From contig OY969931.1 in the NCBI GenBank assembly GCA_963704705.1, forward strand, positions 330,001 through 362,000: a stretch of DNA of 32,000 nt, written 5' to 3'. Position 1 is the stretch's first letter, and each line of letters begins with the position of its first letter. The stretch is from an uncultured bacterium (GTDB taxonomy: Bacteria > Patescibacteriota > Gracilibacteria > UBA1369 > PNNO01). Under the pieces are notes generated by a model. It ran no database searches, was not told where the DNA came from, and saw only the letters and a list, made by a program, of their open reading frames with translations. Positions 3,126 to 28,869 of this stretch are shown one piece after another. Both the position numbers and the translations under genes were made by a program.

Positions 3126-4031
3126 ATGGACATTACATCCACAATTAAGGGCTTTCTTGAGGAATCGAAGTTACTCAATAAAAAACCGCTTCTTGTGATT
3201 TTAGGGGGAACAGCTTCCGGCAAAACCGCATTTTCAATAAAAATTGCAAAAGAATTTGATGGCGAAGTTATTTCAACTGATTCACGTCAAATTTATAAAT
3301 ATATGGATATTGGAACTGCAAAAGTAACACCGCAGGAAGCGCAGGGAATTCCGCACTATATGATTGATTTTGTTGACCCTGCTCAGGAATTTACTTTGGC
3401 GGATTTTGTGAAAACAGCAAAAAAATATATCGATTATATTCATTCAAAGGGAAAATTGCCTATTTTGGCTGGCGGGACAGGACTTTATACACGTGCGATT
3501 TGTGACAACTTTGATATACCTTGCGTACCGCCAAATACTAAATTGCGTGAAGAGCTTGATAAAGAAGATCCTCAAAAATTACATGACAGATTAATTGAGC
3601 TGGATCCTGAAGCTGCTAAAAACATCCATCCTAACAATAAAAGGTATGTAATAAGGGCAATTGAAAGAGCGATGGCTGGTAAAAAACCAACAAAAACTCC
3701 AAATTCCGATTTTAATATATTAAAATTTGGCATTGAGTGGGATAGAGAAAAATTATATGAAAGAATCAATACAAGAGCCGCTAATCAGATAGAAGAAGGT
3801 CTTATTAATGAAACAAAAACACTTCTTTCAAAAGGTTATAATGAAAAATTGCCGTCTATGTCCAGCCTTGGATACCCTGAAATGATAAAATATATAAGAG
3901 GAGAGCTTAGTCTTGATGATGCATTGGAACTTCTTCAAAAAAATACCAGGAATTATGCTAAAAGGCAGTTAACGTGGTTCCGGCGCGAACCAGATGTGAT
4001 TTGGCTTAACGGAGCCACTTTAAGTAATTAA
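3126..4031 (+). CDS. miaA: tRNA dimethylallyltransferase
   Basis: P-loop GGTASGKT, then STDSRQIYKYMDIGTAKVT and LAGGTGLY, plus the C-terminal YAKRQLTWFR motif. All are characteristic of MiaA. Confidence 0.93.
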   Translation: MDITSTIKGFLEESKLLNKKPLLVILGGTASGKTAFSIKIAKEFDGEVISTDSRQIYKYMDIGTAKVTPQEAQGIPHYMIDFVDPAQEFTLADFVKTAKKYIDYIHSKGKLPILAGGTGLYTRAICDNFDIPCVPPNTKLREELDKEDPQKLHDRLIELDPEAAKNIHPNNKRYVIRAIERAMAGKKPTKTPNSDFNILKFGIEWDREKLYERINTRAANQIEEGLINETKTLLSKGYNEKLPSMSSLGYPEMIKYIRGELSLDDALELLQKNTRNYAKRQLTWFRREPDVIWLNGATLSN

Positions 4032-4033
4032 AT

Positions 4034-5680
4034 ATGTCAGTACTTGGTAAAAAATGGGAAATTAAAAACACTTCTGAAAAAAGTGTTATTGATAAAATTT
4101 GTGAAAATAGAGGACTTTCTGACCCGAATGATTTAACGCAATTTTTGGAACCTGATTTTGAAAAAGATTTTCATGATCCTTTTTTGCTTCCAGGAATGCA
4201 AAAAGCAGTTGACCGTATAAAAAAGGCAATTGCAGATAAAGAAAGAATTATGATTTATGGAGATTATGATGTTGATGGAATTAGCGGTACAGCAATTATG
4301 TTTATAGCATTGGAAAAACTCGGAGCCCAGGTTTCTTATCGATTGCCTCACAGAGTTAATGACGGTTACGGCTTGAGTGCTAAATTTATTAGCGAGTTTA
4401 ATGATGTTAATGTAAAACTTCTTATTACTGTTGATTGCGGAATTTCAAATGCTGATGAAATTGCAAAGGCAAGCGCAAAAGGCATTGATGTAATTATCAC
4501 AGATCACCATACGATTCCTGAAAAATATCCGAGTGCTGCATACGAGATTGTGCATCCTCTACGTCCAGACAGCAAATATCCATTTAAAAAATTAACTGGT
4601 GCAGGAGTTGCATTTAAAGTTGCGCAGGCATTATTTGGTAAAGATCCTTTTGTTTATGAATTGTTGGATTTAGCAAGTCTTGGAACTGTTGCTGATTGCG
4701 GGCCTATTATTGGAGAAAACCGATTAATTGTTAAAAAAGGTTTGGAAATTTTGCCTCAAACCAGATGGGAAGGTTTGAAATCATTGCTTGAAAGTGCAGG
4801 GGTTGATACTGAGCGACCTTTGAATACTTTTACAATTGGTTATCAGATCGCGCCGAGAATAAATGCTGCGGGAAGAATTGATTCACCTTATTATGCACTT
4901 CAATTGTTAGTTAAAGAAGATGCTAAAAATCTTGCTGATAAATTAGAGAGTCTAAATCGAAAACGTCAGGATATGTTGAAAAAAGCTCTTGATGATGCCG
5001 AAAAACGATATGTTGAGAGCGATGATAATTATTTGATAATAGAGCATGATAAGCAGTGGCATGTTGGGATTATCGGGCTTGTTGCCGGTAAGTTGGCGGA
5101 AAAATTTAATAAACCTGCAATTATTTTACAGGATTTTGATGATTATCTCGTTGCATCAGCCAGAAGTCCTCAATTTTTTAATATTGTTGAAGCACTTACT
5201 GAACATAAAGATTATTTAATGCATTTTGGAGGTCATGCGCAGGCAGCTGGTTTCAATATTAAAAAAGATCGATTTGAAGATTTCAAAAAAGCTATTAAAG
5301 AATATGCGAAACAAAAATTACAAAGCAGTGAAATTGTTTCAAGTCTGGCTATTGATTGCGAAATTTTACCTGAAGAAATGAATTGGGAAACTTTTGAATT
5401 TATAAGGTCGCTGGAACCCTATGGAATTGCAAATGAAAGGCCTATTTTCTTGCTTAAAGATGCTGTGATTCAGCACGCTAAGGTTGTCGGGAAAGATGAA
5501 AAGCATTTATCTATTTATATTAATAAAGGCGGCGTTAATATTAGAGGCATTGGCTTTAATTTAGGTGAACATGCGGAATACGTCAGGAATCAGAGGTCTT
5601 TGGACGTGGTTTTTCAACTCGATGAAAATCAATGGAAAGGACAAAGCAGTCTCCAAATGAAAATTTTGGATTTTGGTTGA
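4034..5680 (+). CDS. recJ: single-stranded-DNA-specific exonuclease RecJ
   Basis: 548 aa. DHH motifs (IYGDYDVDGISG, DCG, ITDHH), the RecJ-typical APRINAAGR motif and the DHHA1 motif GGHAQAAG. Confidence 0.9.
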   Translation: MSVLGKKWEIKNTSEKSVIDKICENRGLSDPNDLTQFLEPDFEKDFHDPFLLPGMQKAVDRIKKAIADKERIMIYGDYDVDGISGTAIMFIALEKLGAQVSYRLPHRVNDGYGLSAKFISEFNDVNVKLLITVDCGISNADEIAKASAKGIDVIITDHHTIPEKYPSAAYEIVHPLRPDSKYPFKKLTGAGVAFKVAQALFGKDPFVYELLDLASLGTVADCGPIIGENRLIVKKGLEILPQTRWEGLKSLLESAGVDTERPLNTFTIGYQIAPRINAAGRIDSPYYALQLLVKEDAKNLADKLESLNRKRQDMLKKALDDAEKRYVESDDNYLIIEHDKQWHVGIIGLVAGKLAEKFNKPAIILQDFDDYLVASARSPQFFNIVEALTEHKDYLMHFGGHAQAAGFNIKKDRFEDFKKAIKEYAKQKLQSSEIVSSLAIDCEILPEEMNWETFEFIRSLEPYGIANERPIFLLKDAVIQHAKVVGKDEKHLSIYINKGGVNIRGIGFNLGEHAEYVRNQRSLDVVFQLDENQWKGQSSLQMKILDFG

Positions 5681-5733
5681 TTTTATAAGTGAATTTTGCT
5701 ATTTTGCCTTCTTAATTGTTGAGCTTTATATGA

Positions 5734-5762
5734 TTGACAATTAAGGAAAAGTATTTTATAAT
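5734..5762 (+). promoter_or_regulatory. candidate sigma70-type promoter
   Basis: TTGACA (5734-5739), 17-nt spacer, TATAAT (5757-5762), 23 nt upstream of the TTG start at 5785. Confidence 0.5.
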
Positions 5763-5784
5763 AATATGATGCTAATTTATTAAA

Positions 5785-7227
5785 TTGACTTTAAATCAAA
5801 TCCAACAACAAGTGGTTCAGCAGCTTAAGAACAGCGAGAAGGTTCTGATATTGCCTTCAGCTCCACCTGACGGAGATTCTATTGGTTCAGCACTTGCGCT
5901 ATTTTTATTGTTAAAGAAGATGGGAAAAGAAGCGACAGTCGTATGCAGTGATCCATTGCCGGATGTTTTGGGATTTTTACCAAAAACAAATGTTATTGAT
6001 GATCAATTGGTTACTTCGAATGATTTTATTGTTACCCTGGATTGCAGCAAAGCAAAAATAGATACAATAAAAACGGATGTTGAAGACAATAAGGTAAATA
6101 TAATTATTACACCAAAACAGGGGACCCTAAGTGAAAATGAGGTTTCTTTTAATTATGGGCCTTCAAAATATGATTTAGTGGTTGTTGTTGATGCAGGTGA
6201 TTTGTCGCAGCTTGGAAAACTTTACGAAAACAATGCGGGTTTGTTTACTCAAATTCCAGTTATAAATATCGACCACCATGTAAGCAATAATCAGTTCGGC
6301 AAAATTAATTATGTTGATATTATGGCTTCATCTACAACAGAATTGATGGTGCCAGTTCTTGAGGAACTTGGTAAAGATTTGATTGATGAAGATATCGCAA
6401 CTTTATTGTTAGCCGGAATCATTACGGATACCGGAAGTTTTCAGAACGCAAATACTAGCCCGAAAGCGTTTTCATCGGCTTCACACTTATTGGGATATGG
6501 GGCTCGGCAGCAGGAAATTATTCAGCACATTTATAAAACAAAGAACTTAACAATGCTTAAGCTTTGGGGAAGAGTTCTATCAAAAATTCAATTTGACCCT
6601 TTATATAAAATTGTCTGGTCTACAATTAACCAGCAGGACTTTAAATCAACTCAAAGTGTAGAGGATGAAACAGGGGATATTATTGATGAATTAATGACAA
6701 ACGCACCTGGTGCGGATGTTGTGCTTTTAATTAAAGAGCGCAGTGATGGCCTTATTTCTTGCAGTGTAAGGACAACAAGCCAGGCAATTGATGCCAGTCA
6801 AATTGCTGAAAGTTTTAATGGCGGAGGACATGTGCAGGCAGCTGGATTTAAAATTAAGAGTAATGATTTGGAATCAACTGAGAAAGAAATTATTAAAAAA
6901 GTACGTGAATTTCAGGCAAAAAGACTGAATATTCATCCTGATGAAGAGCCCGAAGTTATAAGCGGACCGGAATTTGGACAATTCCAGGATAAATTAAAAG
7001 AACCGGTTTGGAAGGGCCAGAGCGAGCCAAAGGCGAGCTCTATGGAGCGAGCGCCAGCGAGCGAAGTAATAAAAACTTCTAAAAACAAAAGACGTCGCAA
7101 ACCAAAATCCAAGAAACCTCAGCAGAAAGCCGAGGAAGTTAAAAAAGAGGATGTTGTTGAAAACATTCCAAAAGAACAGCACGATATAGATTTGGAACCT
7201 GGAATGACTTACAAGTTCGAAGATTAA
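5785..7227 (+). CDS. DHH/DHHA1 family phosphoesterase (NrnA-like) with a long basic C-terminal tail
   Basis: Motifs PDGDSIGS, DHH (INIDHH), ITDTGSF and DHHA1 GGGHVQAAG. The last ~95 aa are Lys/Arg/Glu-rich (KNKRRRKPKSKKPQQKAEEVKKED). TTG is the only plausible start, because an in-frame stop lies at 5773-5775. Confidence 0.85.
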   Translation: MTLNQIQQQVVQQLKNSEKVLILPSAPPDGDSIGSALALFLLLKKMGKEATVVCSDPLPDVLGFLPKTNVIDDQLVTSNDFIVTLDCSKAKIDTIKTDVEDNKVNIIITPKQGTLSENEVSFNYGPSKYDLVVVVDAGDLSQLGKLYENNAGLFTQIPVINIDHHVSNNQFGKINYVDIMASSTTELMVPVLEELGKDLIDEDIATLLLAGIITDTGSFQNANTSPKAFSSASHLLGYGARQQEIIQHIYKTKNLTMLKLWGRVLSKIQFDPLYKIVWSTINQQDFKSTQSVEDETGDIIDELMTNAPGADVVLLIKERSDGLISCSVRTTSQAIDASQIAESFNGGGHVQAAGFKIKSNDLESTEKEIIKKVREFQAKRLNIHPDEEPEVISGPEFGQFQDKLKEPVWKGQSEPKASSMERAPASEVIKTSKNKRRRKPKSKKPQQKAEEVKKEDVVENIPKEQHDIDLEPGMTYKFED

Positions 7228-16606: not shown

Positions 16607-17760
16607 AACTTTTGCAGATTAAGTTTTTCGTAAATGTGTTTTTTGTAAGTCCATAATGATCCAAATGCAATCATAGTAACGAAGAAACATACAAACCATC
16701 CAAGTATAGGGATCATTCCAACAATCATAATAATAAAGCCACCTAAAGCAATTATTCCGAATAGTTTTCCTTTTGTCATTTTTTTAGGTTTCAGAAGAAA
16801 ATTACCTATAAACATTGCAGCATAAACCTTTGCAAAAGCCCATGTAATACCTAAAAGTCCAAGTAAGATAAATGCAAGAGGCAAGCCTATTACAGTAATA
16901 CTTAATATTATTGCAGCGGCAATAGAGCAAATCCATAAAACAAAACCCAGTCCCAAACTTCTCCAAGTGTGCTCTTTACACACTTTTGTTGTTGCAATTA
17001 AAGTTATTGGTAATAATGATACTAAAACAATTGCTAAAACCAGCATTGTTAAGTACATGAATATCTGCCAAAAAATATGAAATTTTGAAAACATTGCTTC
17101 AAAACCTGTTCCAAAATTAGGTTCTTCAATAGCAAGTTCGTTGTGTTCGATAAATCCTGCAACCTGATCTTCATTTAGTTCAGCTTCTCTGAGACTTGTA
17201 TAAACAAGATTTCCGTTTATGTTTGCATCAGGTGTAAGAGTTAATGATTCCTGAATTTCAACAGTAACATCTCTGTAAACATTTCCGCCTAAAATTAATT
17301 TACCTCCTCCTCCGAGTATATCTTCATTAATTGTTCCAAGAACATTTGCAAAACCCGCTCCAAAAACCAATGAACCACCTATTAAAGTGTCGTTGCTAAT
17401 GTTCAATTGGCCACCTGAAGCAATCAAATCATCTCCAATATTTCCATTTATAATTATTGTTCCTCCTGCAACACGAACATCATCCCCTACATCACCGTTT
17501 AAAGTGATTTGTCCGCCAGCTGCAATTAAATCGCCTTTAATGTTTGCATTAATTGTTATAGATCCTCCTCCCACTACAAGATCTCCGTCAATGTCGCTGT
17601 CAATTGTAATAAGTGCGCCTCCTGCATAGACATCATCAAGTGATAAGTCTTGCAAAAAGAGCTCTTCCTGGCCGTAAAAATTGACTGCCATTGCTGTGTT
17701 TGCGCTTATAGCCAAAAACATCAGCGCTGAAAAGAGTACTGTTACTTTTTTCATTTTCAT
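16603..17760 (-). CDS. signal-peptide-bearing beta-helix repeat (bactofilin-like) protein with a C-terminal polytopic membrane domain
   Basis: Signal peptide MKMKKVTVLFSALMFLAISANTAMA. About 8 degenerate repeats of the type GDLxxxGGxIxIxGxI follow (DGDLVVGGGSITINANIKGDLIAAGGQITLNGDVGDDVRVAGGTIIINGNIGDDLIASGG). The protein ends with 4-5 TM helices. Confidence 0.7.
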   Translation of the reverse strand: MKMKKVTVLFSALMFLAISANTAMAVNFYGQEELFLQDLSLDDVYAGGALITIDSDIDGDLVVGGGSITINANIKGDLIAAGGQITLNGDVGDDVRVAGGTIIINGNIGDDLIASGGQLNISNDTLIGGSLVFGAGFANVLGTINEDILGGGGKLILGGNVYRDVTVEIQESLTLTPDANINGNLVYTSLREAELNEDQVAGFIEHNELAIEEPNFGTGFEAMFSKFHIFWQIFMYLTMLVLAIVLVSLLPITLIATTKVCKEHTWRSLGLGFVLWICSIAAAIILSITVIGLPLAFILLGLLGITWAFAKVYAAMFIGNFLLKPKKMTKGKLFGIIALGGFIIMIVGMIPILGWFVCFFVTMIAFGSLWTYKKHIYEKLNLQKF

Positions 17761-22996: not shown

Positions 22997-24409
22997 ATGA
23001 AACTTGAGTTTATTGGTGCTGCCAAGGAAGTTACGGGTTCAAAGCACCTTTTGCACGTGAATGGCAAGAAAATACTTTTAGATTGCGGAATGTTCCAGGG
23101 TAAACGTAAAGAAGCCTACGATAAGAACATGAATTTCCCTTTTAATCCTTCTGAAATTGACGCTGTTATACTTTCTCATGCGCATATAGACCATAGCGGA
23201 CTTTTGCCATTATTATGTAAACAAGGATTTAAAGGACCTATTTATTCAACATTTGCCACACGCGATTTATGCCATTATATGCTTATGGACAGTGCTTATA
23301 TACAAGAACGTGAAGCGGAATATCTAAATAAGAAAAAGGAAAAACACGGCGAAGAACCAATTGAACCAATATATACAACAGATGATGCTGAACAGGCATT
23401 AAGTCAGTTTATTGGTATGGGTTATGAGCGTACTTTCACTGTTGAAGACGCTTTGGCAGCTTGTTTTTATGATGCAGGTCATATCTTGGGTTCGTCAGTT
23501 GTACATATAATTGTTTATGAAAAAGATATAGATAAAAGAACTACATTAGGCTTTACAGGTGACCTTGGTCGTAAGAATATCCCACTTTTAAGAGATCCGC
23601 AGCCAATGCCGCCATCTGAATTTTTTATTACGGAAACAACATACGGAAATCGTTTACATGAAGCTTTTGATCAGTTGGATGCACAGCTTATTGATATAGT
23701 TAATAACACTTATAAAAAAGGCGGAAAGCTGATAATTCCCGCTTTCTCGGTTGGCAGAACACAGGAAGTTGTGTACAGACTTAATGTAGCAGTTAAAGAC
23801 AAGCTTATTCCTGAATTCCCGATTTTTGTGGATAGTCCTTTGTCAGGTAATATTACAGAAGTTTTCTCGGCACATCCTGAATGTTTTGACCGTGAGGTAT
23901 ACCGTGAATTTATTGATAACCGCTTAAATCCGTTTGGATTTGGAAAAGTAAAGTATATTACAGATGTTGCTGAATCAAAAAAACTTAATACATATGACAA
24001 ACCATGTATTATTATTTCAGCTTCAGGAATGTGTGAGTTCGGACGAATTCTTCATCATTTGAAAAATAATATAGAAGACCCGCGAAATACTGTATTGCTT
24101 GTTGGATATCAGGCTGAAAATACTTTGGGCCGAAAAATTCAGGATGGAATGAAAATTGTAAATATTTTTGGAGAACCTTATGATGTGAAATGTGATGTTC
24201 ATAAAATAGATGCTTTCTCAGCGCATGCTGATCGAAGCGATTTGATTGACTACGTGAGTCATATTAAAGGAATTAAACAAATATTCCTTGTACATGGCGA
24301 AATCGATTCGCTTAATGCATTTCAAAATGTTCTTCACGAGAATGGCTATGACAACGCAATGATTCCTTCTCCAGGAGATATTGTCGATTTGACTGACAGT
24401 AAGCTTTAA
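22997..24409 (+). CDS. beta-CASP family metallo-beta-lactamase-fold ribonuclease
   Basis: Motifs MKLEFIGAAKEVTGS and HAHIDHSG, beta-CASP motifs (ETTYG, AFSVGRTQE, SAHAD) and a C-terminal RNA-specificity region. 470 aa. Confidence 0.88.
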   Translation: MKLEFIGAAKEVTGSKHLLHVNGKKILLDCGMFQGKRKEAYDKNMNFPFNPSEIDAVILSHAHIDHSGLLPLLCKQGFKGPIYSTFATRDLCHYMLMDSAYIQEREAEYLNKKKEKHGEEPIEPIYTTDDAEQALSQFIGMGYERTFTVEDALAACFYDAGHILGSSVVHIIVYEKDIDKRTTLGFTGDLGRKNIPLLRDPQPMPPSEFFITETTYGNRLHEAFDQLDAQLIDIVNNTYKKGGKLIIPAFSVGRTQEVVYRLNVAVKDKLIPEFPIFVDSPLSGNITEVFSAHPECFDREVYREFIDNRLNPFGFGKVKYITDVAESKKLNTYDKPCIIISASGMCEFGRILHHLKNNIEDPRNTVLLVGYQAENTLGRKIQDGMKIVNIFGEPYDVKCDVHKIDAFSAHADRSDLIDYVSHIKGIKQIFLVHGEIDSLNAFQNVLHENGYDNAMIPSPGDIVDLTDSKL

Positions 24410-24432
24410 AGCTTAGTTGTATGCAATTAATA

Positions 24433-24460
24433 TTGATATTTATTCTAAGTTCGATATAAT
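24433..24460 (+). promoter_or_regulatory. candidate promoter of the tRNA-Gly gene
   Basis: TTGATA (24433-38), 16-nt spacer, TATAAT (24455-60), about 35 nt upstream of the tRNA. Confidence 0.4.
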
Positions 24461-24494
24461 GCTTTTTGCACTTCCAGTATTGATATTTGAATGT

Positions 24495-24569
24495 GCGGGT
24501 ATAGTATAATGGCTATTATGTTGGCCTTCCAAGCCGAAGATACGGGTTCGATCCCCGTTACCCGCTCCA
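24495..24569 (+). tRNA. tRNA-Gly, anticodon UCC, with genomically encoded CCA
   Basis: Folded by hand. Acceptor GCGGGTA/TACCCGC, D arm GTAT-AATGGCTA-TTAT, anticodon arm TTGGC-CTTCCAA-GCCGA, 4-nt variable loop, T arm ACGGG-TTCGATC-CCCGT, discriminator T, CCA. 75 nt. Confidence 0.93.
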
Positions 24570-24572
24570 AAC

Positions 24573-24609
24573 AAAAATGACAAGCCTAGCGCTTGGCATT
24601 TTTCGTTTT
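24573..24609 (+). terminator. rho-independent terminator after tRNA-Gly
   Basis: ATGACAAGC (24577-85) / GCTTGGCAT (24591-99) pair at 8 of 9 positions. The stem has an A-run before it and TTTTTCGTTTT after it. Confidence 0.55.
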
Positions 24610-24645
24610 GGTGTGGGGAAAGGTTGGAGCGCAGCCGTAGGGTTG

Positions 24646-24687
24646 CCTTAAGCATGCGTACGAACGAAGTGAGTCGGATGATTAAGG
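24646..24687 (+). other. conserved hairpin element, copy A (structured RNA or folded-DNA recombination site, unassigned)
   Basis: Outer stem CCTTAA (24646-51) / TTAAGG (24682-87). Inner stem CG(T)AC (24657-61) / GTCG (24673-76). Apical part GA-AC-GAA-GT-GA. Confidence 0.5.
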
Positions 24688-24715
24688 ACAGCGAAGTGAA
24701 CGAAGTGAGCGTAGA

Positions 24716-24737
24716 TCGATCCCCGTTACCCGCTCCA
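24716..24737 (+). repeat. 22-nt perfect direct repeat of the tRNA-Gly 3' end (T-loop through CCA; equals 24548-24569)
   Basis: TCGATCCCCGTTACCCGCTCCA occurs at 24548-24569 and again at 24716-24737. The second copy lacks the 5' strand of the T stem, so it is not a tRNA. Confidence 0.9.
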
Positions 24738-24843
24738 TTAGGTTCGAACCAAGAATAGCCCTTTCTGTAGAGGAAAAGGGTTGTTATGTGTGTGAGTGGG
24801 GTTTAAATAAAGTGAATAAGACATTGTGTATTTATTTCAAAAT

Positions 24844-24871
24844 TTGATTGAACGGAAAATTAAGTTATAAT
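24844..24871 (+). promoter_or_regulatory. candidate promoter of the 24893 ORF
   Basis: TTGATT (24844-49), 16-nt spacer, TATAAT (24866-71). Confidence 0.35.
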
Positions 24872-24892
24872 TTAATAAATTAAATATTTATC

Positions 24893-25408
24893 ATGGTAGA
24901 AATTAATGGAAATGAATTTGAACAATTATCTGATGAAGAGGTTAACGCTCTATGGGATGAAACTTTTCCAGTTACAGAGGTGCCAACTGATCTTACAAAT
25001 GAGAATAAAAGGGCGGCTTTAGAAGATATTGGATTTAAAGGATTTGAAATAAGCCAGCTCTCTGATAAGCAGGTCGACTATGTATGGGAAAAGTATCATG
25101 CATCTAGAAAAGTACCAACTGACTTCACAATCGAAATGAAAAGGGCGGTTTTGGAAATTAGAAGGCATCAAATAGCTCAAATATCTGATGCAGATATTGA
25201 TATTCTGTGGAAAAAGACTGTTTCAGATATAGAAGTAACAGCTTCAATAAAGGATATAAGAAGAATGATTTTAGAAAGAATTCAGAGTAATCCAAAACTA
25301 CTAGTCAGTGCAAAGGGACTTGTTAAAAGTAGCGAAGCATTAAGAAAGCATCACGAAGATTTTCGTAGACGAGAATTGTTAATGAGAGAGTGGGGAACTT
25401 TGGATTAA
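24893..25408 (+). CDS. hypothetical protein built from three ~40-aa internal repeats plus a basic helical C-terminus
   Basis: The repeats are FEQLSDEEVNALWDETFPVTEVPTDLTNENKRAALEDI, FEISQLSDKQVDYVWEKYHASRKVPTDFTIEMKRAVLEI and HQIAQISDADIDILWKKTVSDIEVTASIKDIRRMILERI. No signal peptide and no known family recognised. Confidence 0.65.
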   Translation: MVEINGNEFEQLSDEEVNALWDETFPVTEVPTDLTNENKRAALEDIGFKGFEISQLSDKQVDYVWEKYHASRKVPTDFTIEMKRAVLEIRRHQIAQISDADIDILWKKTVSDIEVTASIKDIRRMILERIQSNPKLLVSAKGLVKSSEALRKHHEDFRRRELLMREWGTLD

Positions 25409-25442
25409 AAAAGTTCTAACATCGTTGCAGGTGGAGCTCCAT

Positions 25443-25477
25443 AAAAAACGACTGGCCTTAGGGTCAGACGGTTTTTT
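25443..25477 (+). terminator. bidirectional rho-independent terminator
   Basis: AAAAAA, then CGACTGGCC (25449-57), TTAG, GGTCAGACG (25462-70), G, TTTTTT. One A-A mismatch and one G-U pair. Confidence 0.6.
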
Positions 25478-25504
25478 ATTAGACGTTAGAAATGGTTCCC
25501 GTTG

Positions 25505-25543
25505 CTTGATAGCGCGGCGAATGAAATGAGCCGGACTAACAAG
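25505..25543 (+). other. conserved hairpin element, copy B
   Basis: Outer stem CTTG (25505-08) / CAAG (25540-43). Inner stem CGGC (25515-18) / GCCG (25530-33). Apical part GA-AT-GAA-AT-GA. Confidence 0.5.
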
Positions 25544-25555
25544 TACGCTTTAGTG

Positions 25556-25567
25556 TACCCGCTCCAA
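25556..25567 (+). repeat. 12-nt copy of the tRNA-Gly acceptor 3' strand plus CCA plus A (equals 24559-24570)
   Basis: TACCCGCTCCAA at both sites. Confidence 0.7.
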
Positions 25568-25587
25568 GCTTTTCACTTAATAACCCC

Positions 25588-25616
25588 TTGAAGAATATTG
25601 ATTATATCTTTATAGT
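25588..25616 (+). promoter_or_regulatory. candidate promoter of the module-3 SLH gene
   Basis: TTGAAG (25588-93), 17-nt spacer, TATAGT (25611-16). It is preceded by AACCCC, as is the promoter at 19547. Confidence 0.45.
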
Positions 25617-25646
25617 GATTTTTGGTATTATTTAACCTAATTTATC

Positions 25647-26639
25647 ATGAGAAGTGTTATCAGAGCGGCACTGATTCTTGCGTGCTTGTTTGCTGTGGCA
25701 CCATTGGTGTTTGCTGATATAGCAATACCTACCACTACTACTGTTTATTTCCAAATGAACGGACAGTCCTATGAAAAGCCTGTAGATTATACGGTGAATT
25801 GTTACGGTTATAATTATTCGCCTGACTCAATGGAAGCTCCTGCAGATTATGATCCAGCAAATCCGGATCTAGTTTATACATATCAGGCTTCTTGTCCTGA
25901 ATATGGCTGCGAAATAGATGAAGGATATTATTTGAATTATCGTCACATTGACTCTTGTGATGTTGAAGGGGAAACCGACGGAATGGTTTTTAAAATTGAG
26001 AATTATGCAACCACTCCATTACCTGAAGATTGTGAAGGTGACGGACTTGGAAGAACCTGTACCCAAACTTTTGACATTCCTGAATTAACCGAGCCTGAAC
26101 CTGTTTTTACTGATGTAGATTCTGGTAATAAATATGTTGAAGCCATCGGGTATGTGAAAGACGCAGGTATTGTTGAAGGATACGAAGACGGAAGTTATAA
26201 ACCTGATAGTGATATAACAAGAGCTGAATTTACAAAGATTATTATTGAATCAGCATATTCTGATACTGAAATTCAAGACTGTGTCCCTACAAAGGTTTAC
26301 CCTGATATCCCAACTGATGAATGGTATGAAAAATATGTATGTGTTGCCACCAACAATGGTATTATTGAAGGCTATCCGGACGGTGAATTTAAAGGTATAA
26401 ATAAAATAAATTTTGTTGAAGCAGCTAAAATTATTTCTCTTGGATTTAATTTTGAAGTTGGGTCGGCTATGTCTGGAGAGCAGTGGTATGTGCCATACGT
26501 TGAACTTCTTCAGTCAAAAAATGCAATTCCTGCAGATATAGATGCTGTGGATCATGACGTAACAAGAGGAGAAATGGCTGAAATGATTTATCGCCTTAAA
26601 GAGGAGATAACTAATAAACCCTCATCTCAATTACTTTAA
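25647..26639 (+). CDS. secreted SLH-domain protein with a Cys-rich N-terminal domain
   Basis: Signal peptide MRSVIRAALILACLFAVAPLVFA. The N-terminal ~150 aa contain 8 Cys. SLH-like repeats follow (FTDVDSGNKYVEAIGYVKDAGIVEGYEDGSYKPDSDITRAEF; YPDIPTDEWYEKYVCVATNNGIIEGYPDGEFKG; a third is degenerate). Confidence 0.8.
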   Translation: MRSVIRAALILACLFAVAPLVFADIAIPTTTTVYFQMNGQSYEKPVDYTVNCYGYNYSPDSMEAPADYDPANPDLVYTYQASCPEYGCEIDEGYYLNYRHIDSCDVEGETDGMVFKIENYATTPLPEDCEGDGLGRTCTQTFDIPELTEPEPVFTDVDSGNKYVEAIGYVKDAGIVEGYEDGSYKPDSDITRAEFTKIIIESAYSDTEIQDCVPTKVYPDIPTDEWYEKYVCVATNNGIIEGYPDGEFKGINKINFVEAAKIISLGFNFEVGSAMSGEQWYVPYVELLQSKNAIPADIDAVDHDVTRGEMAEMIYRLKEEITNKPSSQLL

Positions 26640-26648
26640 AAAAGCAAT

Positions 26649-27002
26649 ATGATTTATGAGACAAAGTTCTTAATATCACTTGCTCTTACTCTCATAATCG
26701 AAGTACCTCTCGTAGTCTTGATGGTTAAATATATAATCAAACTACGGGAGGTTTCTTTATGGAAAATAATTTTTGTAGCTTTTCTTGCTTCCGCGACCAC
26801 GCTGCCATATTTATGGTTTGTTATCCCACCTTATGTAGATGCCAGATTTTATATTTTATATGGTGAAATATTTGTGGTTGTGACCGAGGCATTTATCTAT
26901 AATCAGCTGCTAAAATTAAATATTATAAAAGCACTTCTTCTTTCAATAACCGTTAATTTAATTTCGTATTATTTAGGGAGACTAATTCTTGGATTATTTT
27001 AA
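26649..27002 (+). CDS. hypothetical small integral membrane protein (117 aa, about 4 TM)
   Basis: Starts 10 nt after the SLH gene. The hydrophobic helices carry conserved-looking acidic residues (IIEVPL, GEIFVVVTEAFIY). No His or Cys. No family recognised. Confidence 0.6.
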   Translation: MIYETKFLISLALTLIIEVPLVVLMVKYIIKLREVSLWKIIFVAFLASATTLPYLWFVIPPYVDARFYILYGEIFVVVTEAFIYNQLLKLNIIKALLLSITVNLISYYLGRLILGLF

Positions 27003-27035
27003 CTGGGATTATTATTAGCGAAAAAAGTTCTAACA

Positions 27036-27083
27036 TTGTTGTTTAAGCATGCGGTGAATGCGCAGCATGAACCGGAGTAGCAA
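27036..27083 (+). other. conserved hairpin element, copy C
   Basis: Outer stem TTGTTG (27036-41) / TAGCAA (27078-83, with G-U pairs). Inner stem CGGT (27052-55) / ACCG (27071-74). Apical part GA-ATGC-GCA-GCAT-GA. Confidence 0.5.
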
Positions 27084-27086
27084 TTT

Positions 27087-27096
27087 CCCCGCTCCA
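27087..27096 (+). repeat. fourth core copy, CCCCGCTCCA
   Basis: CCCGCTCCATT is shared with the copy at 24729-24739. It lies 1 nt from the stop codon of the convergent minus-strand gene. Confidence 0.6.
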
Positions 27097-27097
27097 T

Positions 27098-27619
27098 TTA
27101 AACATCTGGAAGCACTCCAAGCGAATCATTGAATCTGTTAATGAAGTTGAAAAGACCAATAACACTTGTTATTTCTACTATTTGTTCATCTGTAAAGTTT
27201 TCTTTCATGCCGTTAAAAACTTTCTTTTCAATATTGTAAGCATGGCAGGTTGATGCCTGAGTATATTTCATGGCGATTATTTCTTTTTCGTTATCAATTT
27301 TGCAAATTTTCTCGATTTCCTCATCGGTAAGCCCAAAATTCTTTAGTTGAATTTTAGCCACACTAACGCAAAATTCACATTTATTAAGTTCGGAAATTTG
27401 ATAAGCGACTTTCCATTTCAATAGTCTTTCAACTTTGCCTTCTCCCATGGTTGCCTGGAATAAATCAAAAAATCCAAGCATGATTTCTTCACGATTTGCC
27501 ATTACTCTTAACCATTTTGGAACATTTCCTGTAGATTTTTTAATTTGTTCAAATAAATCTTTTGCTTTGCCTTTTACTTCATCATCAGTAACAAGGTGTA
27601 CTAGAGGATCATTGGTCAT
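27098..27619 (-). CDS. carboxymuconolactone decarboxylase / AhpD-like family protein
   Basis: 173 aa, helical, with the CxxC-type motif of the family in the context SELNKCEFCVSVAKIQLKNFG. Confidence 0.78.
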   Translation of the reverse strand: MTNDPLVHLVTDDEVKGKAKDLFEQIKKSTGNVPKWLRVMANREEIMLGFFDLFQATMGEGKVERLLKWKVAYQISELNKCEFCVSVAKIQLKNFGLTDEEIEKICKIDNEKEIIAMKYTQASTCHAYNIEKKVFNGMKENFTDEQIVEITSVIGLFNFINRFNDSLGVLPDV

Positions 27620-27935
27620 TTTTAGTTTGGTTAATAATAGAAGTTAATGCATCAGATACTTTACCGTTAAATTCATTGTACTTAAGCCCTCTTTCTTCAA
27701 GAGCGCCTGTCATTTTAGGTCCGAATTTACCTGCAATCACAATATTAACTTTTTTATCTGCAAGCATTTTGACAACGCTAAATCCTGCTCCTCCACTACC
27801 AAAGCTGAATGGATTTTTAATTGTTTCTAATAGTTCTTCAGATTCATTGAAAATAAGATAATAAGGAGATCTGCCTGCTTTTTCATCTACGGCATCAGCT
27901 TTTGTTTTTCCAGTTGAAGCAATTGCTACTTTCAT
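27609..27935 (-). CDS. NifB/NifX-type (dinitrogenase FeMo-cofactor-binding fold) small protein
   Basis: 108 aa. MKVAIASTG...AGRSPYYLIF...GGAGFSVVKMLADKKVNIVIAGKFGPKMTGALEERGL matches the architecture of stand-alone NifX-like domain proteins. Confidence 0.78.
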   Translation of the reverse strand: MKVAIASTGKTKADAVDEKAGRSPYYLIFNESEELLETIKNPFSFGSGGAGFSVVKMLADKKVNIVIAGKFGPKMTGALEERGLKYNEFNGKVSDALTSIINQTKNDQ

Positions 27936-28444
27936 TTTTTTTTGGTTAATAATAAATGTTCGATAATTAGACCGTTAATTATTGAAAAGAGAATCATATA
28001 TATAGTTAAAATAATTACAAACGCTGATCCAAAATAATAAATCATCATTGGTAATAGGGGGATTTTAACAGCTCTGTTATAAAGAAAAATTACAATTAAA
28101 GAGTTTTTTACGCCTTTATCTTTTAAATCCGAAAGCAAGGGATACCACATATAAATTGGTCCTGATGATAATATTCCGAAGATAACAGAGAAGATATAAC
28201 CTTTTACACCAGATTCGTGACCTAACATTTTAGTTATCCTTTTTGAGTTCAGGAATAGATTTGAGATAAACATAAGTAGAAACACGATCACCAAAATCGG
28301 CAGAATTGAAACAACAAGACTGACAAAAGTATTTAAAGAATCAAAAAACAGAGGAGTATTAAAAACTGCAGATATTAAATAAGTGACTGTTACTATTATG
28401 AATAACTTAAGGCCACCGTCTGTTTTTACTAAAAGATTCTTCAT
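27932..28444 (-). CDS. predicted permease, C-terminal-half subunit (ArsP/DUF318-like two-component permease)
   Basis: 170 aa, 4-5 TM. Translationally coupled (4-nt overlaps) to both the upstream half and the downstream NifX-like gene. Family call is by architecture and resemblance only. Confidence 0.55.
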   Translation of the reverse strand: MKNLLVKTDGGLKLFIIVTVTYLISAVFNTPLFFDSLNTFVSLVVSILPILVIVFLLMFISNLFLNSKRITKMLGHESGVKGYIFSVIFGILSSGPIYMWYPLLSDLKDKGVKNSLIVIFLYNRAVKIPLLPMMIYYFGSAFVIILTIYMILFSIINGLIIEHLLLTKKK

Positions 28445-28869
28445 AAGAAAAATTGAAGAGTAATGGTTGTTAAAATCGCTATTAAAATTGCAGAAATGAA
28501 AGCAAGGATATTGCGATAAATTGTAAATTTTTTTCCAAGCATGAGAGATTCAGCAGGTAGCTGTACAACGCCCACAGTTACCCAGGTTAAAATGAATGCA
28601 GTAACCGCAACAAGGCTAATCCCCTGATTTATAAATTCTCCTCCTAAAATATAGCTATTTATTGGATTTCCTAGTGCAATACTTCCTAAAATAGCCCCAA
28701 TTATTGGATCTAAAAGGTTGTTTCCGGTAAATATTTGTTTAAAAAAGTCTTTTGGAATTGCATTAATTAAAAAAGAAATCAGAAGCAGAATTGCAATAAT
28801 TATTGGTATGCTTTTTTTTAGGGCATTGCAAGTTTGCTTTGCTGAATTTTTTATATTTATTAAATTCAT
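28441..28869 (-). CDS. predicted permease, N-terminal-half subunit (ArsP/DUF318-like)
   Basis: 142 aa, 4 TM. The segment DPIIGAILGSIALGNPINSYILGGEF is reminiscent of this permease family. Confidence 0.55.
   Translation of the reverse strand: MNLINIKNSAKQTCNALKKSIPIIIAILLLISFLINAIPKDFFKQIFTGNNLLDPIIGAILGSIALGNPINSYILGGEFINQGISLVAVTAFILTWVTVGVVQLPAESLMLGKKFTIYRNILAFISAILIAILTTITLQFFL

Follow-up and report, generated by a model that had tools for sequence, protein, structure and literature searches.

How did a tRNA gene of an uncultured marine bacterium come to be followed by several copies of its own 3' end, and what is the DNA that these copies divide? The locus was analysed in a window of 32,000 nucleotides (nt), positions 330,001 to 362,000 of contig OY969931.1 (GenBank assembly GCA_963704705.1); coordinates given without a locus name refer to this window, and related loci are designated by L numbers. 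The source is an uncultured, ultra-small marine bacterium of the Peregrinibacteria, within the Patescibacteria (Candidate Phyla Radiation, CPR). Directly 3' of its tRNA-Gly(UCC) gene, the region 24570-27096 consists of four units that all end in GC(T/C)CCA (the core), and relatives carry up to 11 or more co-oriented units per locus. The feature is real and biologically meaningful: a tRNA-anchored accretion array of cassette-sized units with arms of the serine-recombinase type, in a CPR lineage. The sequence data suggest, with a probability of about 0.6, that the array is a stack of integrase-less cassettes formed by site-specific recombination, in which the tRNA 3' end would be the attachment site and a large serine recombinase (LSR) would act in trans. 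Tandem accretion of attachment-site (att) scars and cassettes of a serine recombinase fits better than an integron.

The last 22 nt of the tRNA gene, TCGATCCCCGTTACCCGCTCCA, were found at 24548-24569 and again, perfectly, at 24716-24737; shorter copies were found at 25556-25567 (TACCCGCTCCAA, 12 nt) and at 27087-27096 (CCCCGCTCCA, 10 nt), as reported in a first-pass annotation of this DNA. The 9-mer CCCGCTCCA occurred exactly five times in the window compared to 0.07 ± 0.26 times in shuffled sequences, with four copies (the last two at 25558-25566 and 27088-27096) on the plus strand inside 2.6 kb, which rules out that the array's copies match the tRNA by chance. The fifth copy (17354-17362) is inside a gene of the DUF8173 family and is seemingly unrelated to the array. 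Three modules had been counted at first. An extra boundary was detected at 25407-25441, ending in GGAGCTCCA (25433-25441), and the second module is therefore two units. The resulting map is as follows, with arms of two forms (B-type and P-type) that are defined further below.

24495-24569, plus strand: tRNA-Gly(UCC) gene with encoded CCA (ARAGORN, Rfam)
24570..24737, plus strand: unit 1, 168 nt, without an open reading frame (ORF), delimited by sequence repeats and by homologous units in relatives
24581-24603: bidirectional terminator of unit 1
24624-24631: inverted copy of the core, TTGGAGCG
24647-24686: hairpin element
24687-24715: second stem region, purine-rich
24716-24737: B-type arm of unit 1, a perfect 22-nt copy of the tRNA 3' end
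24738..25441, plus strand: unit 2, 704 nt
24738-24828: conserved 5' block of unit 2, TTAGGTTCGAACC plus the box GGGG..AAAGTGAAT
24758-24785: terminator hairpin
24844-24871: promoter-like site
24893-25408, plus strand: ORFan protein p171, 171 amino acids (aa), with three internal repeats
25407-25441: 35-nt P-type arm of unit 2, AAAAAAGTTCTAACATCGTTGCAGGTGGAGCTCCA, 29 nt from GTTC to CCA
25442..25566, plus strand: unit 3, 125 nt, without an ORF
25452-25477: terminator of unit 3
25494-25505: tRNA-like sequence, GGTTCCCGTTGC
25506-25543: hairpin element
25543-25558: small hairpin
25558-25566: core of unit 3, CCCGCTCCA
25567..27096, plus strand: unit 4, 1530 nt
25588-25616: promoter-like site of unit 4
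25647-26639, plus strand: secreted SLH-domain protein, 330 aa (SLH domain by Pfam)
26649-27002, plus strand: membrane protein, 117 aa
27021-27041: distal half of a split P-type arm, AAAAAAGTTCTAACATTGTTG
27042-27083: hairpin insert within this arm
27087-27096: core of unit 4, CCCCGCTCCA

The contents described for the modules (promoter-like sites, terminators, the triple-repeat protein and the SLH protein) were thus present, and only their number changed. No homologue of p171 was found among 5.8 billion proteins. In the ORF-less units, a terminator is followed by a structured region and then by a tRNA-like end. Homologues of unit 1 were detected directly after the tRNA in five relatives (L002, L003, L004, L125, and L129) and also inside arrays (L003 16096-16287 and L123 7377-7548). 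The array is flanked by two genes on opposite strands.

22997..24409, plus strand: beta-CASP metallo-beta-lactamase gene (RNase J-like), conserved left flank (Pfam, synteny)
27098..27619, minus strand: CMD-family gene, right flank (Pfam), whose stop codon begins at 27098

The array ends at 27096, next to this stop codon, as had been noted, and no arm or core of the array was found beyond 27096 in the window. The left flank placed the locus among relatives: the nearest beta-CASP homologues belonged to metagenome-assembled genomes (MAGs) and single-amplified genomes of Peregrinibacteria/Peribacteria, with 75-82% protein identity in L001-L005, and a 94%-identical relative (L116-L118) was recovered from metagenomes. 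The beta-CASP gene always lies 5' of tRNA-Gly in the clade (synteny in L001-L005 and L116-L131), and all close relatives have SLH genes, PGA_cap, beta-CASP, and tRNA-Gly in this order. The upstream four to five genes and the tRNA were syntenic in L001-L005, in which no downstream gene was shared with the window; the lone downstream gene common among relatives was an ABC-F gene in L002, L005, and L123. Synteny therefore breaks sharply at the tRNA. The tRNA of L116/L118 is the same as that of the window, and homology ended exactly at CCA, followed by AACAAAAATG in the window versus TGATCTGTAC in the 94% relative. In JGI sample 3300017593, alleles on the same backbone (1 mismatch in 2.4 kb compared) differed from 9 nt past CCA; divergence was complete at the inverted core copy, and one variant carried an inverted P-type arm. 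Alignment of the locus across relatives, a check set beforehand, thus revealed a hypervariable locus in which homology breaks exactly at CCA or the core. When proteins identical to beta-CASP, p171, and CMD of the window were looked up, matches came only from the same sample, and no strain comparison was gained from them.

Inverted cores were also observed elsewhere. In ORF-less units, TTGGAGCG lies about 100 nt upstream of the direct core (24624-24631 and 24731-24737 in the window), with variants at L126 11621-11685 and L129 11575-11694, and the hairpin segment between inverted cores might be invertible. A repeat of another sort was seen in L007 (63% beta-CASP identity), where CCCGCTCCACGTCGA, the tRNA end plus 6 nt, is repeated 185 nt downstream with GC-rich repeats between (4605-4811); this resembles an insertion of another type at that tRNA.

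One unit could be compared across lineages as a whole. The ABC-F units of L002 and L123 were 96.8% identical over 1939 nt, compared to 76.5% for the beta-CASP backbone. The similarity breaks off on the left at GCTCCA, where the left arms of the two loci are unrelated, and on the right inside the arm. By its sequence, this unit appears to have been transferred recently between lineages. L123 also carries one cassette twice, with 90% aa identity between the copies.

Contigs of many independent assemblies end 0-120 nt from the tRNA-Gly 3' end or inside the tRNA (L113, L116-L120, and L129-L131), and the end of L124 lies within the 35-nt arm; the island is therefore systematically missing from, or misjoined in, MAGs of the clade. 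Among Logan contigs of the window's own sample, one ended at 24577 and the next started at 24708. Each end lay at the 22-nt repeat plus 8 nt, i.e., 30 nt (k-1) past the repeat edge, given a k of 31, which we take to be that of the Logan assembly graph. Ends at k-1 therefore point to reads in which the end of unit 1 runs directly into its start. From this assembly behaviour, unit 1 was inferred to exist in its own sample as a circle or in tandem, and the junction would read ...GAGCGTAGA-TCGATCCCCGTTACCCGCTCCA-AACAAAAATG.

The sequences left of the cores were of two forms. The last 24 nt of the tRNA (24546-24569, GTTCGATCCCCGTTACCCGCTCCA), in which the T-loop motif GTTCGATC sits 24 nt from the CCA end, correspond to an attB-type (B) left arm. 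The second form is a 35-nt motif 3' of cargo genes (A arm, AAAAAGTTCTAACATCGTTGCAGGTGGAGCTCCA), with the variants A' (AGTTCGAACATCGTTCACTAAGGAGCTCCA) and Bm (GGTTCGATTAGTGTCCAGGAGGGAGCTCCA) of the same length. Alignment of all of these (alignment A3) indicated that the far end GTTC.A.C and the near end GCTCCA are common to the tRNA and the arms, and that the stretch from GTTC.A.C to CCA measures 29 nt in A, A', and Bm, with one 28-nt variant, compared to 24 nt in the tRNA. Because of this 5-nt longer spacing, A, A', and Bm were read as P arms, of the 29-nt form GTTC[T/G]AAC-N16-GCTCCA, and the end of the tRNA was read as a B arm. The arms were also considered as degenerate tRNA copies; this was rejected, as they are 5 nt longer than any T-loop-to-CCA segment of a tRNA.

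The window and 19 related loci, 20 sequences in total, were scanned for arms. A strict pattern matched 16 P-type arms, all of them downstream of the tRNA and on its strand, and none was detected in the 176 kb of sequence that lie upstream. Neither a covariance model for the hairpin nor loose arm patterns gave a match elsewhere in the window. A dispersed repeat (of the REP or terminator kind), which would have many unrelated intergenic copies in both orientations as in repetitive extragenic palindromes or bacterial interspersed mosaic elements, had been named beforehand as the finding that would overturn the proposal. It was looked for over about 330 kb of related sequence, and there the arms and the hairpin were confined to this locus and co-oriented. 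Exact scans with arm motifs of IMG/VR (17-mer) and JGI metagenomes (20-mer) returned mostly chance matches, plus one related copy, L101.

The A arm showed 100% identity among the window, L002, L003, and several L123 copies, next to unrelated ORFs, against 78-80% identity of the beta-CASP proteins and 76-83% of their DNA. This bears on the possibility that the repeats are old, functionless attR scars of decayed tRNA-targeting islands or prophages that a tyrosine integrase had inserted. Such islands usually leave a scar of direct repeats of the tRNA 3' part, which are present here as the perfect 22-nt repeat and cores of 9-12 nt; the copies of 22, 12, and 10 nt shorten away from the tRNA, and scattered partial tRNAs are known for tycheposon islands (bioRxiv 10.1101/2020.12.28.424599). 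Functionless scars should drift, yet the 35-nt arm is invariant across these lineages. Moreover, arms longer than the tRNA segment by 5 nt are not copies of it, boundaries never cut genes, no integrase fragments were found in the arrays, and no gene of the phage-integrase family was found in the window or within 10 kb downstream of the tRNA in L001-L004. We therefore regard decayed islands as quite unlikely.

The clearest array, that of L123, comprises at least 11 units over 9.6 kb, each with one gene or one operon.

L123 unit ends: 2161 (tRNA), 2642, 3160, 3528, 4046, 5171, 6411, 7376, 7548, 9727, 11727

No boundary in L123 cuts a gene. Six of its 10 coding units are on the minus strand, so that cargo confined to the plus strand, as first described, is true of the window and not a rule of the system. 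The orientation of the arms was constant whatever the strand of the gene, indicating that they belong to the array and not to gene expression: a terminator or 3' untranslated element would follow the gene, whereas a recombination scar follows the array, and the arms were accordingly read as array-structural. The cargo of the units is ORFan or accessory, with toxin-type genes in relatives. Cargo genes in L001 included one for an AbiEii-type nucleotidyltransferase with an overlapping 43-codon partner ORF (5147-5762), and a zeta-toxin gene was observed as cargo in L004 (4903-5595). Toxin-antitoxin-like cargo is typical of cassette arrays.

The starts of the units are conserved as well, and the earlier statement that the conserved part is the 3' end holds for that end but not for it alone. 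A terminator hairpin always directly follows the final CCA. A common start block of about 90 nt, TTAGGTTCGAACC..GCCCTTTCTGTAGAGGAAAAGGGTTGTT..GGGGTATTAATAAAGTGAAT, was found at 24738-24828 in the window, after the first core in L003, at 5832 in L004, and four times in L123. In units with this block, the similarity extends through the promoter-like region as far as the fifth codon (MVEIN), beyond which the proteins are unrelated (24844-24907 in the window; L123 2733-2790 and 3620-3680), which suggests recombination or constraint reaching into the start of the ORF.

Shared starts raise the question of whether the units are repeated expression modules (a terminator, a promoter or leader, and an RNA-stabilising or REP-like element) spread by duplication and homologous recombination. 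The terminator at every unit start and the promoter-like block up to MVEIN in many units agree with such modules; so do the GNRA-like loops and tandem G.A pairs of the hairpin, which are typical of RNA motifs, and the 35-nt and ~90-nt blocks could anchor homologous exchange, e.g., after DNA uptake. The arms, however, keep their orientation to the tRNA whatever the gene strand and are absent from the 176 kb upstream and the rest of the window, the left breakpoint of the ABC-F unit falls at a 6-nt core between unrelated arms and not in long homology, and the hairpin has no Rfam match. Among the explanations weighed here, we hold this one to be the least probable.

The 40-75-nt homologous element that had been noticed left of the cores is real and is a covarying hairpin of 45-95 nt, with the shape CTTAAGCATGCG..loop..CGGATGATTAAG and variants. 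Compensatory changes were found in 7 of 14 pairs, along with conserved G.A and G.G mismatches, and 90.7% of cells were paired compared to 21-34% when the partner was slid by 1-3 columns. The hairpin is positioned between ..GTTGC and AGG/CCC-GCTCCA in P-type and tRNA-like arms alike, and it interrupts three of the four arms of the window (loops at 24659-24674, 25518-25531, and 27054-27071). It is tandem-doubled at L002 15242-15355 and missing from most arms of L123. In a search of Rfam 15, only the tRNA was matched, with nothing credible at E ≤ 5 in 24400-27200. The loops were seen to contain mini-hairpins of the GCGAAGC type or paired GTGAAC repeats (tandem G.A pairs), motifs of very stable DNA or RNA hairpins. 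Because an otherwise continuous arm is interrupted by it, the hairpin resembles a small insertion that favours a particular target within the arm; such an insert should split the protein-binding site of the arm and may lock units in place.

A hairpin beside a core could instead be an attC site, in a true integron-like system with circular cassettes and a recombinase acting on a folded single-stranded site. Small, mostly single-gene units with ORFan or toxin-type cargo would suit such a system, as would conserved non-canonical pairs in the hairpin, duplicate cassettes in one array (L123), and the inferred junction that fits a unit-1 circle or tandem copy. However, no IntI-type or other recombinase gene was found nearby; where an IntI-type tyrosine recombinase gene would adjoin the primary site, the gene upstream of the tRNA is the conserved beta-CASP hydrolase. 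The RYYYAAC...GTTRRRY architecture of attC was absent from both strands of 24400-27200, most boundaries in L123 have no hairpin, and the hairpin splits an otherwise continuous arm in the manner of an insertion. Integron cassettes are co-oriented, as a rule promoterless, and under a common promoter; here, units have their own terminators and promoter-like sites, with genes on both strands (minus-strand genes in L123). We consider a true integron unlikely. From the integron likeness proposed in the first-pass annotation, the small integrase-less units, variable in content between relatives, and the primary site at the tRNA are retained, whereas IntI, attC, and a common promoter are lacking.

Candidates for the recombinase of the cassette stack came from relatives.

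L121 11541-13271, minus strand: LSR gene at the tRNA-Gly 3' end
L132 10001-11635: LSR gene, 62% identical to the L121 LSR, adjoining tRNA-Gly(UCC) in an unrelated CPR contig

In L121/L122, a sister lineage with 81% beta-CASP identity, the LSR gene lies directly at the tRNA-Gly 3' end and is followed by a DnaG-zinc-ribbon protein (primase-type), DUF5659, and other small genes. The LSR has Resolvase, Recombinase, and Zn_ribbon_recom domains, and its homologues are common in CPR (50-66% identity). In both L121 and L132, the last codons of the LSR gene run into the tRNA, and integration alters the final residues of the enzyme. At the far end of the L132 element (~3945-3975, about 7.6 kb off), AGTTCTGACGTCTTTCACTAATTAAGCTC is followed by a terminator and aligns with the A' arm; here, element-type genes (M78 peptidase/HTH) give way to those of the host. 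What had looked like another core in L132, at 6137, was dismissed as a chance CCGCCCCA inside a gene. Distant LSRs were also found at tRNA 3' ends in viral contigs, beside tRNA-Gln in L140 and L147, with the LSR frame stopping 114 nt and ~95 nt short of the tRNA, respectively. A search of viral contigs for a free-form attP was empty when a single protein was scanned with, and a profile scan gave only relatives of ≤42%. One viral contig, L133, with a 42%-identical LSR and no tRNA, has GTTCGAACATCGT at ~5685-5697 on the minus strand, 82 nt before the LSR stop; it matches the A' arm at 13 of 13 positions and could be a free-form attP.

The spacing of the two arm forms also points to a serine recombinase. 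In serine integrases, the distance from the crossover to the motif bound by the zinc-ribbon domain is 5 bp shorter in attB half-sites (positions 11-19) than in those of attP (positions 16-24) (PMC3783163). The core GC(T/C)CCA is common to all junctions, and the crossover could be CT or TC; with CT, the motif would occupy positions 12-19 of the tRNA half-site and 17-24 of the arm half-sites, close to the published values. The 5-bp shift between attP and attB is thus present between arms and tRNA, in left arms.

Several observations weigh against a trans-acting LSR as the builder of the stack. Recombinase genes were found neither in the window (Pfam scans of its 30 main ORFs) nor in the arrays examined; the units are integrase-less, as first claimed. 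None of the best 120 LSR homologues (L121 query) came from the window's 1.37-Mb contig, a result uninformative on distant recombinases. No mirror-image right half-site was recognisable at the expected distance right of the core, and the core of the A arm, TGGAGCTCCA, is palindromic. To our knowledge, classical serine integrases do not recombine attP with attL, and repeat insertion needs an extra assumption. Gene conversion or a tyrosine integrase would also leave a repeat like the perfect 22-nt one of unit 1. The comparisons are mostly between species or genera, save for L116-L118 and the variants of one metagenome, and no excision product was directly seen. A right half-site in GGTTCGAACC of the 5' block had been considered and was dropped, as this sequence is nearer by 4 nt than a B'-type site would be, and in terminator-type units no suitable sequence was seen after the tRNA.

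With these points considered, the following course of events is proposed for the accretion stack. The tRNA-Gly(UCC) 3' end would be the chromosomal attachment site for a family of integrating DNAs in a marine Peregrinibacteria clade, and 24570-27096 would have been laid down there by tandem accretion as four small recombinase-less units. Each unit would begin just past a ...GC(T/C)CCA core with its own intrinsic terminator, which would end the tRNA transcript when the unit adjoins the tRNA, and would close with the left arm of a recombination site, either 24-nt B or 29-nt P. Strand exchange would occur inside GCTCCA, probably at CT or TC, so that every unit start could be combined with any left arm. 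The enzyme would most likely be an LSR supplied in trans by a full-size element such as those in relatives. Units would be inserted successively beside the tRNA, with older units pushed outward.

A more dynamic version, a 'serine integron', would have the trans-acting LSR insert, excise, and reshuffle single-gene cassettes at tRNA-Gly(UCC), with the hairpin disabling arms. The P-type arms would then belong to the cassettes, the T-loop and acceptor of the tRNA would be the B-type arm, each cassette would bring the terminator of the tRNA, and inverted cores may permit inversion. This version is put forward tentatively and is less probable than not.

The rest of the 32-kb window contains housekeeping genes and no recombinase. 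Two adjacent DHH/RecJ-like genes were observed at 4034-7227, and an ArsP-like permease is split in two overlapping ORFs at 27932-28869.

CPR/Patescibacteria have tiny genomes, and little is known of how they gain and exchange accessory genes. In these episymbionts, strain-level variation would have one of its main sites in a conserved, tRNA-anchored stack of exchangeable units, whose cargo comprises surface proteins, transporters, peptidases, toxin-type genes, and ORFans; such a stack would also explain why metagenome assemblies break at the tRNA. If the arms are true serine-recombinase half-sites, serine integrases would build multi-cassette arrays, outside their textbook behaviour, and if the 'serine integron' were true, the integron principle would have been invented independently with a different enzyme class. 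The natural short att sites and a tRNA-directed recombinase family may serve genome engineering.

No paper on such arrays in Peregrinibacteria or CPR was found in a narrow literature search, and the array was therefore compared with known systems. Like integrons and clusters of attC sites lacking an integrase, it is co-oriented and composed of mostly single-gene units, often ORFans or toxins, with no recombinase within units, with content that differs between relatives and a fixed primary site at its head; its boundary motif is near-invariant, whereas attC sites are variable, and its primary site is a tRNA 3' end. The pdif modules of Acinetobacter plasmids are reportedly Xer-dependent, small, recombinase-less modules bounded by short sites in varied contexts, with XerC/XerD sites that are said to alternate in orientation and to be plasmid-borne. 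In contrast, the sites here are co-oriented, chromosomal, and tRNA-anchored, without the Xer-type 11-6-11 architecture.

The sites of serine integrases (A118/LI, Bxb1, and phiC31; PMC3783163) resemble the arms in having two left-arm forms that have an 8-bp distal motif and a core-proximal motif in common, with spacings that differ by exactly 5 bp, but known enzymes give one prophage per site by strict attP × attB recombination, and P-type stacks have not been described for them. Tycheposons of Prochlorococcus (bioRxiv 10.1101/2020.12.28.424599) likewise form tRNA-anchored hypervariable islands in marine streamlined genomes, with tandem elements separated by partial tRNA copies and with scattered remnants, and a minority use LSRs; the L121 element, with its LSR and primase-type genes, resembles a small tycheposon or satellite. 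Tycheposons are, however, defined by integrase and replication genes, which the window's units lack, and the repeats here are dedicated arms 5 nt longer than the tRNA segment that bound cassette-sized units with conserved 5' and 3' ends. The array also agrees with ICESt1 and the cis-mobilizable elements (CIMEs) of streptococci (PMC5704250), in which att-bounded elements without a recombinase are stacked head-to-tail at one site and presumably depend on the recombinase of a complete element. Those systems use a tyrosine integrase, whereas the arms here look like half-sites of serine recombinases, and the present units are smaller (0.13-2 kb, often one gene), more numerous (at least 11 in L123), and hosted by a CPR bacterium. 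As DNA segments bounded by att sites and devoid of recombination or transfer genes, the units agree with the descriptive definition of a CIME.

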